Shown: piece by piece, positions 6,250 through 55,743 of the stretch
Layout: each line of letters starts with the position of its first letter
How positions within the stretch are numbered: the first letter of the stretch is position 1
NCBI GenBank assembly: GCA_951406725.2
Contig: OX597832.1
Coordinates: 17,298,001-17,362,000 of the forward strand
DNA: 64,000 nucleotides
Direction of reading: 5' to 3'
From: Octopus vulgaris
Lineage: Eukaryota
Position numbers and translations under genes: made by a program
The notes under the pieces: generated by a model
Seen by the model: the letters and a program-made list of their open reading frames with translations, nothing else
The model's database searches: none
Told to the model about the DNA's origin: nothing

Positions 6250-6592
6250 ATAAATTTTTTCGTAATGAGATAAAAAAAAACCAAGGCTGTGTAGAAATTA
6301 GAACATTTATAGATAGAAGGTCTTACAGCTGTTCCCAGGATATTTATTATATTCCTTCATCGGAGACGGTGTGAGAGGATGGTTTAGTAATAGTTAATTT
6401 AGATAGGATAAAAAATAGAGAGTGAGGTGGAGGAAAGAAAATAGATGTGAGATATGTAGGCATATTGAAGTTGTAGATCCATTTTTAAGGCAGAATTGTA
6501 TATTTGTAAGATTCCAATATCTTATGAGTGAGATCCAGCAGCATTTAAACTTGGTCATTCCAAGTACAGAATTTATACACAGTGTTGTAGAG
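6250..6592 (-). mobile_element. Penelope-like element 3' remnant with decayed hammerhead
   Basis: Minus strand has frameshifted ILES...NGSTTSICLHI resembling a GIY-YIG C-terminus, followed by a hammerhead-like motif; flanked by TA tracts. Confidence 0.5.
6320..6367 (-). ncRNA. Minimal type I hammerhead ribozyme, decayed, CCGAUGA core
   Basis: Reverse complement reads GTCT CCGATGA AGGAATAT aataa ATATCCT GGGAA CAGCTG TA AGAC: helix I GTCT/AGAC, palindromic helix III, GAAA damaged. Confidence 0.55.
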
Positions 6593-8140: not shown

Positions 8141-8309
8141 AATATATAATAGTTATCGCCCATATGGCATTCTTATAAAAATAAGAAAAAAGCTGTCCGC
8201 TTATTAGCTCCATGAGGCCATCGCCTTAAGTTAGCTATTTGATACACAAACTGTATCCATATAACCTTCGAACAAGGGAGGTCAGTCGCTCCACACTACT
8301 TGACCGGCA

Positions 8310-8351
8310 GCTACAGACGCGTTTCGGGGTATTGCCCCTTTTCAATGCAGC
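8310..8351 (-). ncRNA. Minimal type I hammerhead ribozyme, U3:A8 core variant (copy 1)
   Basis: Reverse complement of the motif at 8867-8908. Confidence 0.75.
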
Positions 8352-8671
8352 GTAGCCAGCCAGTAGGTGTCGCTTCCGACAATCTCTGTTCGATGGTTTT
8401 ATTTACCTAGTTTCGGTGGAATATATCCACTTGTTTTCAATAATAGAAATATTAAAATAACTAAGTGTCTCTAAAAGAGAACAGCGGCAGCGTTCCCGGA
8501 AAATAATAGTTATCGCCATACTAATATGGCATTCTTATAAAAATAAGAAAAAAGCTGTCCGCTTATTAGCTCCATGAGGCCATCGCCATAAGTTAGCTAT
8601 TTGATACACAAACTGTATCCATATAACCTTTGAACAAGGGAGGTCAGTCGCTCCACACTACTTGACCGGCA

Positions 8672-8713
8672 GCTACAGACGCGTTTCGGGGTATTGCCCC
8701 TTTTCAATGCAGC
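8672..8713 (-). ncRNA. Minimal type I hammerhead ribozyme, U3:A8 core variant (copy 2)
   Basis: Reverse complement of the motif at 8867-8908. Confidence 0.75.
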
Positions 8714-8866
8714 GTAGCCAGCGTAGCCAGCCAGTAGGTGTCGCTTCCGAGACTTAGTTATTTTAATATTTCTATTATTGAAAACAAGTGGATATATTCC
8801 ACCGAAACTAGGTAAATAAAACCATCGAACAGAGATTGTCGGAAGCGACACCTACTGGCTGGCTAC

Positions 8867-8908
8867 GCTGCATTGAAAAGGGGCAATACCCCGAAACGCG
8901 TCTGTAGC
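8867..8908 (+). ncRNA. Minimal type I hammerhead ribozyme, U3:A8 core variant (copy 3)
   Basis: GCTGCA TTGAAAA GGGG caata CCCC GAAA CGCG TC TGTAGC: helix I GCTGCA/TGTAGC, helix II 4 GC pairs, palindromic helix III, predicted cut after GUC at 8902. Confidence 0.78.
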
Positions 8909-9142
8909 TGCCGGTCAAGTAGTGTGGAGCGACTGACCTCCCTTGTTCGAAGGTTATATGGATACAGTTTGTGTATCAAATAGCTAACTTAAGGCGATGG
9001 CCTCATGGAGCTAATAAGCGGACAGCTTTTTTCTTATTTTTATAAGAATGCCATATTAGTATGGCGATAACTATTATTTTCCGAGAACGCTGCCGCTGTT
9101 CTCTTTTAGAGAGACTTAGTTATTTTAATATTTCTTTTATAG

Positions 9143-9182
<40 letters not shown>

Positions 9183-11100: not shown

Positions 11101-11301
11101 TTTTGGAATGTTTTCGGTGAATCAGTTAACATTCTTTGTTGTGCTGTTTTGTGCCGTTGTATGCAAATAATTTTCAAGAAATCGAGCACACATACGCAGC
11201 CGACATATAAACCACTTCATAGTATGGAAAAATGAATTGCCAAAATGGAATTTCGAAACTTATTGGGGTCTCATCAGTGGTGTGTACATCACTTTGTGTG
11301 C

Positions 11302-30707: not shown

Positions 30708-31109
30708 TATACTAATATAGGATAAAATTTGTTTTTTCAAAAAAAACTTCATCAAAAATTGGCAGCATATTAAAATACCTTTAAAGGTTAAAATTATAAA
30801 CAACTTATAAACAAGGGCAAAAGAAAATTTATTTCTATACCAATATGCTGATAACAGACTTTAAATCGTCCATTTCCCCATTTCATTATACATTCGCTAT
30901 AAATATACGTCGTGCTGAAATCGAGGAAATCTAGCCAACAGAATCTTTTTAAAAAGTTCGTTATTTCTATATTGAATCAATTTCGGAATTAATCCTATGG
31001 ATTCTTCCCTGTTCAGTAGAAAATACGATAAGAAATAAATGAACTGCTTATACGCACCAATGGAATAAAGCAAAAGCAAGAGTCAGGTGTACACATAAGT
31101 ACCCCAGTC

Positions 31110-32801: not shown

Positions 32802-33010
32802 GTTAATCCAAACATGAAAACACAAAAAGAAAACACAACAACGCGAGGACGTGGAACAAGTATACTATGATTGGACGCTCAGGAAAGAAGGAGGGTTTAA
32901 CGTTTCGAGCGGAGCTCTTCGTCAGAAACATAGGAAACGGAAAGATCCAAAGAAGGGAAAACGGAGGGAAAAAAATCGCCAACGGTACACATGCGGTCAC
33001 ATTTTGAAAT
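32802..33010 (-). mobile_element. Short TA-flanked insert carrying a hammerhead (Penelope pLTR-like fragment)
   Basis: ~210 bp unique insert between TA tracts containing the motif at 32895-32929. Confidence 0.7.
32895..32929 (-). ncRNA. Minimal type I hammerhead ribozyme with canonical core
   Basis: Reverse complement reads GTTT CTGACGA A GAGC tcc GCTC GAAA CG TT AAAC. Confidence 0.8.
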
Positions 33011-36272: not shown

Positions 36273-36298
36273 CAATATGTTACATTACTCGGTAGTCA

Positions 36299-36361
36299 AG
36301 ATAAAACTCTGAGTTTCAGATGCCGAAGTGGAAATCCACAACACCATCTCTTCGGTTATCT
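36299..36361 (-). ncRNA. Minimal type I hammerhead ribozyme, CCGAAGA core
   Basis: Reverse complement reads AGATAA CCGAAGA GATG...CATC T GAAA CTCAGAG TT TTATCT: 6 bp helix I and quasi-palindromic helix III; lies in a TA-flanked insert at 36273-36603. Confidence 0.65.
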
Positions 36362-37746: not shown

Positions 37747-37921
37747 GGAGAGTGAGAAAGAAATCGGTAGATGGTGAAGAAGATATACAATATAAATTAT
37801 TTTCGAAACGTTTCTCAATAGAAACGTTTCACTGTAAAGTTCACCACTATCAATTATTATTATTAACAATGCAGGCATAACATCATCATCATTATCAAAA
37901 CGACATCAACAAGTATATGTG

Positions 37922-39587: not shown

Positions 39588-40938
39588 GGAAAAATAAGGA
39601 AACTGTTGACAATGCATAGAATGCACCACCCTAAGGCAGATACAGAACGACTCTATCTGCCAAGAAAAGAGGGAGGCCGTGGTCTTTTGCAACTGGCAAT
39701 AACAATGGAGATTGCTACAATTGGCCTAGACACCTACCTGAAAAACTCTGAGGACTGGATATTAAAACTTGCCTCAAAACATGAAAACAAGAAAGCATCA
39801 TACTCAGTCACAAAACAGGCAAAGGAATATCTAAGTGAATTCCGAATACAACCAATTTCGGAAATAGAGATAGATATACAAGAAACAAGCACAGAAAAAG
39901 CTAGGCGCATGAAAACCCGTGCCAAAACTGCGGCCTTAGATATTCTGAATAATAAATGGCAAGAAAAACCTCTCTATGGCAAATACCCAAAGAGAGCGAA
40001 TAATGCAGATATCGACAAATCCCTGACCCATCAATGGCTAATGGCCTCTGGCTTAAAATCTGAAACAGAGGGGTTTATCATAGCAGCTCAAGATCAATGC
40101 CTACCAACAAGAAACTACCAGGCCAACATATTAAAGATCAGAAGCAGTCCAACGTGTCGTGTATGCAAGCAACAAAATGAGACCATTGACCATGTGGTCT
40201 CCAAGTGCAGTCTTCTAGCGCCTACAGAGTATCTCAACAGGCACGATAGAGCTGCACAATATATTCACTGGGTAATCTGTAAAAACCTGGATTTGCCCCA
40301 TGAAAAAAACTGGTGGGAACACAAACCACCCCCAGTGCTTGAAAATGACCACATCTCACTCCTCTGGAACTTCACCATTCAAACTGACAGGAAGATAGAT
40401 GCAAATAGGCCAGACATCATATTGAAAGACTTCAAACAAAGAACATGCCTCCTCATTGATATGACTGTCCCAATCGATATAAACGTATCTGTCAAGACCT
40501 ACCAAAAACTGAGCAAATATAAAGATCTTGAAATAGAAATCAGCAAAATGTGGAAGCTGAAGACTAAAACAACACCTGTTGTCATAGGTGCCCTGGGAAT
40601 GATAGCAAAAGGGGCTGATAGCTACCTAACTCAGATACCAGGAAACCCAAAAATGGCAGAAGTTCAAAAGATAGTGCTCATGGGAACTGCTCATATCCTA
40701 CGCAAAATACTCTCTATGTAATCTCAAGGTTTAAAACAAACATAATTTTCGGTTTAAAAAAAAAAAAAAAAAACCTTTTTTTTTTTTTAGACATTCATTA
40801 GTACAACATCCCCACTTCCCAAATATATGGCACACTAGGCATAACAATAACATGAACTTCCAACCCTGTTGTCTTTTGAGGTCTCTGGGTGAGACTTGGA
40901 GCCAACTTGTACAAATATAAAGCAAAAGTCAAACATAG
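39588..40938 (+). mobile_element. 5'-truncated R4/Dong-like non-LTR retrotransposon (family 1) in (TAA)n
   Basis: Open frame starts at the microsatellite junction; ~217 bp 3' UTR ends directly in (AAT)n. Confidence 0.92.
39606..40721 (+). CDS. C-terminal part of retrotransposon ORF: RT thumb, CCHC knuckle, restriction-like endonuclease
   Basis: LYLPRKEGGRGL, CRVC...ETIDHVVSKC, RHD, NRPDIILKD...LIDMTVP, KLSKY; no stops over 371 aa. Confidence 0.92.
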   Translation: MTMHRMHHPKADTERLYLPRKEGGRGLLQLAITMEIATIGLDTYLKNSEDWILKLASKHENKKASYSVTKQAKEYLSEFRIQPISEIEIDIQETSTEKARRMKTRAKTAALDILNNKWQEKPLYGKYPKRANNADIDKSLTHQWLMASGLKSETEGFIIAAQDQCLPTRNYQANILKIRSSPTCRVCKQQNETIDHVVSKCSLLAPTEYLNRHDRAAQYIHWVICKNLDLPHEKNWWEHKPPPVLENDHISLLWNFTIQTDRKIDANRPDIILKDFKQRTCLLIDMTVPIDINVSVKTYQKLSKYKDLEIEISKMWKLKTKTTPVVIGALGMIAKGADSYLTQIPGNPKMAEVQKIVLMGTAHILRKILSM

Positions 40939-47181: not shown

Positions 47182-47531
47182 CAATAAAGATTCAAGTTAA
47201 TTTAAATGAATTTACTTGAATATGGTACCTAACTTAGATGCACCAAAAAAAACTATACTGATTTAACAATACAGTAATGTGGGGTGATTATAAGCGAGAA
47301 TGAAGCAACAAGAATGGATAGGTTTTTAGTACAATCGTTTCATACAAGGACAGGTTTTATTAAAAGTTGCAAAAATTACAGCATATAAACGTGTCCCGTA
47401 CTCATCTAAACGTGTCCCGATGAGTACGGGACACGTTTATATGCTGTAATTTTTGCAACTTTTAATAAAACCTGTCCTTGTATGAAACGATTGTACTAAA
47501 AACCTATCCATTCTTGTTGCTTCATTCTCGC

Positions 47532-50178: not shown

Positions 50179-51469
50179 CGAGGGACGTTCAATAAGTAAT
50201 GCCCCTGACCCATTTGCAGTTATTTGATCTAGCTGAAATTTTGCATGTGCAATCATTTATATCTCTATAGAGTAAGTGGCAAATGACAGCTCTGAACTAA
50301 TTGTGGTTTCTGATTTACAGGTGTTTGAACTGAGTCAAGTGTGAAATGGAGCCTGTTGAGTGTCGAGCAGTGATCCGGTTTTTGTATTTGAAAGGACGCA
50401 CACCACGGGAGACTTTTGATGAAATGAAAGTAACTTATGGTGATGATGCCCCATCATATGACCTTGTAAAACGCTGGCATCGTGAATTCAAACATGGTCG
50501 GAACTATGTGGAAACAGCTCCCAGATCTGGTCGCCTCCTTCTGCCATTGATGAGGCATCTGTCCGTCAAGTTGAGACTGCCATTTTGGAAGATCGACGCA
50601 TAATTATTCGCCAAATAGCCCATGAGGTCAAGATTAGTACCGGGTCAGTGGAAACTATCATTCATGACCATTTGCATATGCAAAAGGTGTCTGCCAGATG
50701 GATTCCCAGGTTGTTCACGCCTTTCCAGAAGCAAGAACGCGTCGAGTGCTCGAGGATGAATTTGGAGATGTGCCAAGAAGATGAGTCAAAATTTTTCAAA
50801 AGACTGATTACACAGGATGAAACCTGGGTCCATCACGATGATCCAGAGACCAAAGCCCAGTCAATGCAGTGGAAGCACCGTGACCCATCCCCTCCAAAGA
50901 AGGCAAGGGTGCAGCCCTCCGCTGTCAAGATCATGCTCACAGTCTTCTGGGACCAGGACAGAGTAGTGATGACAGATTTCCTGGCAAAGGGTACCACAAT
51001 TACAGGAGCCTATTATGCTTCACTTTTGAGGAAATTAAGAGAAGTTATCAAATTCAAGAGGCGGGGCAAGATCAGCAAAAGCATCCTCCTCCTGCAGGAC
51101 AACGCTCCGGTTCACAACTCGCTTGTCGCCAGATCAGAAGCACAGGCGTATGGCTATGAACTCCTCCCCCATCCCCCTACTTTCCTGACCTTGCACCCTC
51201 TGATTTTCACCTCTTCCCAGTCATGAAGTTGTTTTTGAAAGGAAAGCGTTTCCCAGATGATGCAGCCTTGATTTCTGAAGTCACGTTCAGGTTGGAGGAC
51301 CAAGCTAGGGTCTTCTACAGAAACGGTCTCAAGAGCTGCATCAAACGATGGGAGAAATGCGTAACTCTGGGTGGTTCCTATGTAGAAAAAGACTAATAAC
51401 TGTGCCAGGTTTCGTTGCTCTACTGCTATGGGAAGTGGGCCAGGGGCATTACATATTGAACGCCCCTCG
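50179..51469 (+). mobile_element. Full-length mariner transposon (1291 bp, probably irritans subfamily)
   Basis: 34 bp TIRs (3 mismatches) cgagggacgttcaataagtaatgcccctgaccca; TA duplication at 50177-50178 and 51470-51471. Confidence 0.97.
50346..51397 (+). pseudogene. Mariner DD34D transposase, frameshifted
   Basis: WIPRLFT, ITQDETWVH, LLQDNAPVH, frameshifted PDLAPSDFHLF, CVTLGGSYVEKD*. Confidence 0.95.
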
Positions 51470-51705: not shown

Positions 51706-52082
51706 ATGAATTTGGCAAGCAGTGACAATATGTATATATATATATATATATAATTCGGTGTGTGTGTGTGCGTGTGTGTATTTATACTCATTAATGTAGG
51801 AAGTGGACTTTTTTAAATTCATCTAAACATGATATTTAATGATTTAGATTAGAGGTGTTCAAAGTGTGTATGTGAGCGCGCGGGTGCTTTCATGAGAGAG
51901 GGAAGCTTTACAGCATTGGTTCAGAATAGCATTTGCACATTCCATTTAGCGTGGATCTACCGTAAAAACACAGCAAAATTACGATTTCCGTTTCGATAAA
52001 GCATGTCGTGTAGAGGTATAGTAGTCAAAAGCACGTAACTATCAGTAGCAGATGAAAGCCGTCGAGCATCGTGGGTGGAATC

Positions 52083-52124
52083 CCTAGATCTGGGATTTCT
52101 GCATATTTACGCTTCATCGGCAGC
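52083..52124 (-). ncRNA. Type I hammerhead, CCGAUGA core (copy a)
   Basis: Reverse complement reads GCTG CCGATGA a GCGT aaat ATGC a GAAA TC cca GA TC TAGG. Confidence 0.6.
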
Positions 52125-52418
52125 AAGTATCCATTTACTCCTCTTACTCAGAAAAGTTTCGTCTTTACTGATATAGAAAAACTAACAATTTACCAAAGCT
52201 GGTAGGCTTTCGGAAGGTACATAACGCAGTGCTGTCGTTCTCTTAAATTATATCAAAGTGAAATAAGATATATTCTGAACTAATACTGCTTCCGGTTGAT
52301 AAGGACGAATTGTTACCCAACCCGGAAGCTTCTTGTGACATTCGTGATTTGTTAATTATTATATTTCTATATCAGTACTAACAAAATTTGTCTAAGCGGG
52401 TGGAGATAGTGATTACTC

Positions 52419-52460
52419 GCTGCCGATGACGCGCAAATCCACAGAAATCGTGGATTAAGC
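52419..52460 (+). ncRNA. Type I hammerhead, CCGAUGA core (copy b, decayed helix II)
   Basis: GCTG CCGATGA cgcgcaaatccaca GAAA TC gtg GA TT AAGC. Confidence 0.55.
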
Positions 52461-52539
52461 TATTCCTCTGCCAACATATTTCAACTTCATAAACAACAAT
52501 AACAAAAATAAAACTAGACAGAAACATTGATTTGTGTGT

Positions 52540-52590
<51 letters not shown>

Positions 52591-52670
52591 CGCGCTTGTG
52601 TGGGTGAAAGTATAAAATGAAATGAAAACAACTAAACAAAACAAAATCGTTCGAGAAAACTTGAAAACTC

Positions 52671-52712
52671 GCTGCCGATGACGCGGAAATCTGCAGAAAT
52701 CTTGGATCCAGC
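52671..52712 (+). ncRNA. Type I hammerhead, CCGAUGA core (copy c, best preserved)
   Basis: GCTG CCGATGA c GCGG aaat CTGC a GAAA TC ttg GA TC CAGC: all three helices pair. Confidence 0.72.
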
Positions 52713-52750
52713 TATTCCTCGGCCAACATATTCCAGCTGCATAAGCATAC

Positions 52751-54714: not shown

Positions 54715-54955
54715 TCTCGAGCCATGTCTGGCTCATAAGAGCCGGCTTCCTAGTTTCTTTGGCGTATAGGTTCCCCACCTGGACGGGACGCCGTCCGTCG
54801 CAGATGAGCTGCAAGATGCAGGAGGAAAGAGTGAGAGAGAAAGTTGTGGTGAAAGAATTAGAAGTTCGCCATTAACTTCTGCCGAAGATGAGTGGAGCTT
54901 AGGTGTTTCGCTCAGAAACACACACATCACTCAGTCTGAGATTCGAACCCGTGCT
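54715..54955 (-). mobile_element. Chimeric SINE (family D body, family B2 tail)
   Basis: gagcgaaacacctaagc...ctttcaccacaactttctctc as in 42978-43361, then ctgcgacggacggcgtcccgtccag...tacgcca...gaaac as in 31605-31857. Confidence 0.75.
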
Positions 54956-55004
54956 AACATTTCTGCCAGGTCACCGCCTTCCTTGGTACCTAATTTCCTC
55001 TTCT

Positions 55005-55182: not shown

Positions 55183-55558
55183 CATTAGTTGAAAGGAGTG
55201 GTTTTCTTCTAGTTGCTCGTCCATAATAACCCAAGCTTATGCAGATATGTAACACTCGTTCTTGGAATAACTTCTAGGTGTATTGCAATTTCAGAAGCCT
55301 TCGAACGGGGTTGGTTTCCCACAATTCTATTCAAACACCGAAGCTTCCATTTTGAGGGCCCAGGTCGGCCGGGACGAGAATCTGTTGATTCTTTTCCTTG
55401 GCTTTTGAACTGCACTATAATTCTATTAACAGTAGCAAGAGGAATTTGAAGATTTTCGGCAATTTTTCGCAGGCTACAACCAAGCTCAGATTGTCCAACA
55501 ATATGACATCTTTGAAAATCAGACAGTTCTGCTGAATTTTTTTTTTTGTGCGTGGCAT
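55183..55558 (-). pseudogene. Tc1-family transposase N-terminal fragment
   Basis: MPR...ELSDFQRCHIVG...SLRKIAENLQIPLATVNRII...RPGRP...LHKLG, then frameshifted RRKPLL. Confidence 0.8.
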
Positions 55559-55743
55559 AGTTACTCTTCGTAAATATTTAATATAATGACACCTGGAAGG
55601 AAAAAGAATAATTACATTGTAAATTCTACACCGCTGAAAACATATTAAGACGTTTAGGTCAGAAATTTTGGAAATTAAACGTGTCTATTTACTTCCTGCA
55701 TGTCTGTGTATATATGTATACATACACACATATATATATACGC

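Follow-up and report, generated by a model that had tools for sequence, protein, structure and literature searches.

Worn type I hammerhead sequences with C at core position 4 in a dispersed repeat of Octopus vulgaris

Three motifs clustered near 52 kb in a stretch of Octopus vulgaris DNA are genuine type I hammerhead sequences, each of them a worn copy, and all three carry C at core position 4 (C4). The stretch, hereafter the window, comprises 64,000 nucleotides (assembly GCA_951406725.2, contig OX597832.1, positions 17,298,001 to 17,362,000, forward strand; coordinates below count from its first letter) and is microsatellite-rich animal DNA with a GC content of 24–43%. The 52-kb copies belong to a dispersed, multi-copy repeat family. 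With moderate confidence, we read them as worn C4 type I hammerheads in a short dispersed repeat, probably of retrozyme type and a passenger of Penelope-like elements, in which C4 is likely the trait of a sub-lineage and the intact form would be a slow cutter, probably acting as a dimer.

A strict hammerhead descriptor in which position 4 was left free was run on the window and on 100 locally shuffled windows. The window yielded three C4 motifs (52675, 52120, and 36355) and four U4 motifs (8873, 8707, 8345, and 32925), compared with 0.05 C4 and 0.09 U4 matches per shuffled window, and at least three C4 matches were reached in 0 of 100 shuffles. Owing to its broken helix II, the remaining 52-kb copy, at 52423, is not picked up by the strict descriptor. 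A second scan, again with position 4 free but allowing up to one further core lesion, added 6363 (C4, with GGAA for GAAA), 31016 (U4, with C for G8), and a doubtful G4 match at 37772; using 20 shuffles as control, such one-lesion matches arise by chance about once per shuffle. Across the window, C4 is present in three of six hammerhead families, set against 2 lesions in 60 at the other fixed core sites (Fisher p = 0.004, post hoc), a comparison that is biased in that the scan left position 4 free and tolerated at most one other core lesion. A further CTGATGA...GAAA with weak helices at 11277 (minus strand), possibly a decayed U4 hammerhead, passed neither descriptor and was not counted.

The core described in the initial annotation, GCTG-CCGATGA followed by GAAA-TC-nnn-GA-T, was confirmed in all three 52-kb copies, with C3 at 52120 (minus strand), 52423 (plus strand), and 52675 (plus strand). 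In 3/3 copies, C3-G8, G5, A6, A9, G12-A13-A14, A15.1-U16.1, and H17 stand in order around three helices, and U is absent from position 4 in every case. This C4 is true DNA and no assembly error, since the contigs that span it agree: no other letter was found in contigs of set X1 (which may be the source of the window) and set X2 (which bears another organism label) over 52020–52510, or in one X9 contig over 52020–52237. Rfam scans returned only microsatellite or noise matches, and no hammerhead model matched the three copies at E ≤ 10; this is a weak test, because the control, a U3-A8 hammerhead at 8873, escaped it as well.

Copy A is a minus-strand hammerhead at 52076..52133 (C3 52120, C4 52119, predicted cut after C17 at 52087), lying in repeat-family sequence that alignment and contigs delimit to 52040..52196 on the same strand. 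It has the best-kept outer stem (UGGA/UCCA, 4 bp) and a UAC/U internal loop, and its damage consists of G·G at pair 4 of helix I (I.4), A·A at 10.1/11.1, and a broken helix III palindrome. An 8-bp stem encloses this hammerhead, formed between ~52165–52172 upstream and the downstream tail at ~52040–52047; the region as a whole folds no better than shuffles (z = −0.96, not significant). Copy B, with repeat-family and hammerhead sequence at 52345..52466 on the plus strand (C3 52423, C4 52424, predicted cut after U17 at 52456), has a helix II of GCGC/CCAC in which two of four pairs are broken (C·A and C·C), and helix I has G·A at I.1. Copy C, an 81-nt block at 52667..52747 on the plus strand (C3 52675, C4 52676, predicted cut after C17 at 52708), has the best-kept core, with 5/6 helix I pairs and a GCGG/CUGC helix II behind a C·A mismatch, and has largely lost its outer stem. 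Helix III of copy C is a near-palindrome, AUCUUGGAU, that self-pairs at 8/9 positions (−4.2 kcal/mol); as in copy A, the palindrome is broken in copy B.

Copies B and C are 252 nt apart, separated in part by a (TG)n microsatellite (52533..52590, no strand assigned), and are 86% alike over 81 nt. Copies A and B, which lie in inverted orientation, are 74% alike over 103 nt. The three had been said to differ widely, which is overstated for 52423 against 52675. Copies A and B are probably inactive, and copy B is likely dead; we take all the 52-kb copies to be old solo relics, with copy C keeping its core and having lost most of the outer stem. Within copy B, 52436–52456 forms a perfect 7-bp hairpin that competes with the hammerhead fold. 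Four of the six differences between B and C in a 52-nt block make an imperfect inverted repeat perfect in B, which looks like the outcome of hairpin-templated repair. Two further repeated, hairpin-forming segments lie upstream of copy B at 52258–52335 and 52343–52393; contig coverage of the second is heavier than that of the hammerhead itself, and these are possibly more conserved parts of the element.

We then considered the register of the fold. The spacer from A9 to G12 is 14 nt long in 3/3 copies and holds an invariant AAAU, so that in the canonical register helix II has four positions and a six-base loop, N-AAAU-N. The hammerhead motif of Schistosoma has an A9-to-G12 spacer of equal length. 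Positions 10.1 and 11.1 are unpaired in every copy, as A·A in A and as C·A in both B and C; an alternative register keeps a G-C pair beside the core but leaves an extra A before G12. Helix I extends to six positions and is followed by the UAC/U internal loop, with the 5′ bulge UAC seen in two of three copies. Covariation had been proposed for helix II from the stems GCGG/CTGC and GCGT/ATGC. This claim fails, because the quoted stems fit only two copies, the third stem, at 52423, being broken, and because double changes are common in shuffles: only 1 of 20 proposed pairs has a double change, a level attained by 277 of 500 shuffles. The canonical register moreover turns the supposedly covarying pair into the loop-closing pair of helix II. 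Overall, 70% of cells pair compared with 25–46% when partners are slid, the structure itself having been drawn from these sequences, and the hammerhead is the minimum-energy fold in 0/3 copies. The middle of helix III does vary between copies as had been noted (CCA in A, GTG in B, and TTG in C), but what was called a freely varying loop is better understood as the worn centre of a palindrome, since copy C self-pairs and A and B do not. Judged from sequence, the fold would fit the canonical, retrozyme-like type I plan, not the minimal Penelope form. In canonical animal type I hammerheads, which act as dimers, helix I spans 6 bp and helix II 4 bp, while helix III is short and palindromic (PMC4209133).

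To place the copies within their family, contigs were aligned at 80% likeness onto 52020–52510, which positioned 49 contigs from X1, 56 from X2, 35 from X9, and 1 from X11, most of them less than 90% alike. Summed depth, which is no copy number, peaks over the copy A hammerhead: it reaches 243 in X1, where the single-copy flank has 11.6, and 705 in X2, where that flank has 37. These two sets probably contain many identical loci. Depth also peaks over 52343–52393 and drops to that of a single locus at 52190–52257. In X1, family contigs repair damage seen at 52 kb, namely 52082 C>T (7), 52083 C>G (6), 52418 C>T (4), and 52413 T>A (2), with similar changes in X2; these move broken helix I and outer-stem positions toward pairing, and those at 52083 and 52082 restore pairs I.4 and I.5 of copy A. 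The tail common to copies B and C is covered by only ~2 contigs, so the two copies count as one event, likely a local duplication. The X11 contig, from a set that is RNA only by guess, spans copy C and has no bearing on expression or cutting. Beyond these sets, the family pattern had 0 matches in metagenome contigs, and a looser C4 pattern found 119 metagenome loci (in 2/64 parts of the collection), none combining helix I with helix II. Nine pattern matches in viral contigs were by inspection not hammerheads, and the upstream motif of the family was unmatched in the Naiad supplement of PMC8557442.

Two C4 motifs elsewhere in the window are unrelated to the 52-kb family, and the report of the same change in unrelated inserts was borne out, with both sites lying inside hammerhead folds. 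The first, CCGAAGA with C3 at 36355 (36297..36361, minus strand), bears no similarity to the 52-kb family. Its helix I measures 6 bp, its helix II is long, and a U is added in front of GAAA, with the core otherwise intact; its helix III is the palindrome ACUCAGAGU (−7.4 kcal/mol). The second, CCGAUGA with C3 at 6363 (6319..6367, minus strand), also has a palindromic helix III and is weaker evidence, because its second core lesion, GGAA for GAAA, marks a decayed copy. A coupling of C4 to an extra base before GAAA, which we considered, is unsupported: 6363 also admits a reading in which A-U closes the helix, and Figure S3 of PMC4209133 includes a U4 motif that has AGAAA. Two look-alikes were discarded. 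CCGAAGA at 54882, which precedes a long hairpin and GAAA (54860–54990), has no helix I or III, and CCGATGA at 47417 is a chance part of a perfect 12-bp palindrome with a 9-nt spacer (47405–47442) and not a hammerhead. The look-alike at 54882 presumably sits in the head of a SINE; other SINE-like repeats in the window, for instance from ~52753, resemble what we take to be octopus SINEs.

The initial annotation held C4 to be a heritable variant and not decay. Its presence in all three copies and in two unrelated motifs speaks for this, while the clustering within 650 bp and the existence of U4 relatives speak against. A family consensus of U4, named beforehand as evidence to the contrary, was found in part, in that the majority letters of distant contigs read CUGA. 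Specifically, among the contigs that diverge from copy B at 52397, majority letters in 8 from X1 and 11 from X2 end in GCTA-CTGA (A2.1, U4; agreement 0.63–0.65), an ending not shown by the 5 X9 contigs of like kind. The contig difference table leaves out sites within ~30 letters of the ends of aligned pieces and is silent on position 4 itself (52119 and 52424). G at 2.1 accompanies C4, and A at 2.1 accompanies U4. As distant family contigs read U4, C4 is likely a sub-lineage trait and not the family consensus; on these letters, C4 together with G2.1 likely marks, at best, one sub-lineage, with U4 members elsewhere in the family. We consider heritability at the sub-lineage level plausible, and amplification of C4 beyond the 52-kb locus fairly probable. 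Copies A and B differ at 13 sites in 52 nt, none of them in the core (p = 0.019, post hoc; 0.054 and 0.19 for the other pairs). It had also been argued that the CpG created by C4 favors retention over decay. The C4-G5 CpG is indeed kept in 3/3 copies, and one helix II site, with TG, CA, and TG in the copies, bears the signature of CpG decay, but the argument is weak because depletion is mild, with a CpG observed/expected ratio of 0.86 over the 55,378 unmasked bases of the window.

Alternatively, C4 could be a founder T-to-C change in one dead local insertion, copied in inverted and tandem form within 650 bp, with 6363 and 36355 as separate cases of decay; this is possible, and we rank it first among the alternatives. 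The three copies are not independent, and A and B could stem from one inverted insertion; truncated insertions of Penelope elements typically show such pairs, close together on opposite strands (PMC4209133). The scarcity of contigs for the B/C tail, the CUGA of distant relatives, the many decay marks in the copies, and the second core lesion at 6363 all point the same way. Set against these are the recurrence of the same change in three families (binomial p 0.0005–0.016 for per-site rates of 3–10%, post hoc), the identity of the core in copies A and B despite 26% divergence, the pairing of G2.1 with C4 and A2.1 with U4, which looks like subfamily structure, and the otherwise intact core at 36355. 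Were C4 merely a local founder change, the locus would be an ordinary cluster of dead repeat fragments. At the other extreme, a functional C4 hammerhead may have become fixed in several unrelated retroelement families of this animal lineage, with a turn run by protonated C, no core-adjacent G-C, and support from outer contacts or dimers. Such a ribozyme would be slow, pH-sensitive, and amplified genome-wide, and would have been overlooked by published searches, which demand CUGANGA or UUGANAA; we hold this to be doubtful.

C4 deviates from the usual U4, in keeping with its description as non-canonical, but U4C has already been printed as a natural viroid variant (cited in Perreault et al. 2011, PMC3088659). 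In that variant, in vitro activity is strongly lowered and infectivity is allowed, for which the authors invoke outer tertiary contacts (PMC3088659). The core change is the same here, and by that comparison a C4 hammerhead is expected to be slower but viable; the viroid case is a minority variant in an RNA replicon, whereas here C4 belongs to repeats in animal DNA and recurs in three families within a single window. The substitution itself is thus known, and its occurrence in an animal repeat family appears to be the new part, on the limited basis that no C4 animal hammerhead family appears in the titles and abstract openings retrieved for hammerhead or retrozyme with Octopus or Penelope. The published surveys of animal hammerheads consulted fix U4 in their descriptors (PMC4209133; 'cuganga' in PMC8557442), so C4 families, if amplified, would escape their counts.

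The carrier of the motif was assessed by comparison with known systems. The 52-kb family resembles non-LTR retrozymes (Cervera and de la Pena 2020, PMC7229834) in its 6-bp helix I, internal loop, outer stem, and 4-bp helix II, in its short near-palindromic helix III, in lacking an ORF, and in its self-paired flanks; in the axolotl Amex2 retrozyme family, helix II is likewise mismatched at its base (PMC7229834). The combination of 6-bp helix I, loop 1, and 4-bp helix II is found in copy A once family repairs are included and is partly lost in B and C. The family is dispersed and without a coding frame, there being no Pfam match to RT or GIY-YIG in the 59 of 88 nearby open frames tested, although short relics often lack one. 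Differences from non-LTR retrozymes are the C4 core, the C·A or A·A at 10.1/11.1, and the lack of a tandem unit at the locus. Because no tandem unit of 170–400 nt was found at 52 kb, where B and C share merely 81 nt, the retrozyme label is drawn solely from the fold. Solo monomers of retrozymes have been described (bioRxiv 10.64898/2026.07.22.740005), and most published hammerhead copies of Penelope-like pseudo-LTRs (pLTRs) are likewise solo.

With Penelope minimal hammerheads, the 52-kb family shares type I topology, neighbours on the opposite strand within a few hundred bases, high variation between copies, and, in copy C, a near-palindromic helix III, and the motifs at 36355 (with its long helix II) and 6363 fit that class. 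U4, however, is present in 56/56 Figure S3 representatives of the minimal form, where it was required by the search (PMC4209133), whereas the 52-kb copies have C4; they differ further in their short helix II, defined loop 1, and the absence of an RT frame nearby among those tested. That the 52-kb motif is nonetheless a minimal hammerhead from a pLTR, in which A9 is followed by an extra base, G-C closes a 4-bp helix II, and one more A stands before GAAA, seems unlikely to us. An extra base between 9 and 10.1, G10.1-C11.1, palindromic helix III, and opposite-strand neighbours are all described for such elements, and one of 56 Figure S3 entries reads AGAAA (PMC4209133); the window also holds further Penelope-type motifs (the 8873 family, 32925, and 31016). 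A 4-bp helix II with a defined loop and an outer stem is not the long helix II and vague loop 1 of that form, and the lack of an RT or GIY-YIG match in the 59 frames tested counts against it as far as short relics allow. This reading concerns the carrier and is compatible with a heritable C4. A chance resemblance inside a repeat, not derived from any hammerhead, is highly improbable: the missing Rfam match and the helix-less CCGAAGA...GAAA look-alike at 54882 would suit it, but core (except position 4) and three helices stand in register, 0/100 shuffles match, helix I and helix II occurred together in 0/119 metagenome sites sharing the letter pattern, and family contigs restore pairing.

Returning to a retrozyme-type repeat with a C4 sub-lineage, we infer from the core letters, helices, repeat nature, and local decay seen in the DNA how an intact form may have worked. 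The founder RNA would have had a 6-bp helix I, the UAC/U internal loop, and an outer stem docking on the helix II loop N-AAAU-N in the manner of canonical animal hammerheads, contacts that would compensate for both C4 and the 10.1/11.1 mismatch. Every single change in the CUGA region led to low activity in pairwise mutagenesis of a type III hammerhead (PMC9901934). The U4 of hammerheads contacts the phosphate between A6 and N7 (PMC3088659), and C4, if protonated at N3, might keep this CUGA-turn contact to the backbone phosphate, by analogy with the U-turn of the neomycin riboswitch, not a hammerhead, in which NMR shows a protonated C replacing U with a pKa >8.2 (PMC4105743). The near-palindromic helix III would pair two tandem copies, allowing a unit-length RNA to be cut out; in an axolotl retrozyme family whose helix II has U·U at its base, the monomer cleaves weakly and the dimer well (PMC7229834). 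A Penelope-like reverse transcriptase could then copy the unit RNA back into the genome. If C4 was amplified by retrotransposition, U4 would be dispensable under selection in an animal element, which goes beyond the tolerance seen in viroids, and the family would offer a natural test both of a protonated C running the hammerhead turn and of slow cutting suiting these elements.

Finally, we note other elements in the window. A young Penelope-like complex insertion at 8146–9146 consists of tandem and inverted blocks 93–98% alike, and three identical U3-A8 hammerheads (UUGAAAA, a published core variant) are found at 8345 (minus), 8707 (minus), and 8873 (plus). Two U4 hammerheads on the minus strand were used as controls: a textbook minimal one with its motif at 32925 (32895–32930), and one at 31016 (30965–31022) whose helix III is long and palindromic and whose G8 is replaced by C. 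A 377-aa open frame at 39588–40721 (plus strand) has a weak zf-RVT match (26.1 bits, cut-off 27.5) and reads as the tail of a non-LTR retrotransposon. DNA transposon remnants comprise a Sleeping Beauty-type HTH fragment at 55209–55577 (minus strand), below cut-off, and a Mariner-type transposase fragment at 50486–51226 (plus strand; Transposase_1, E 2e-21).
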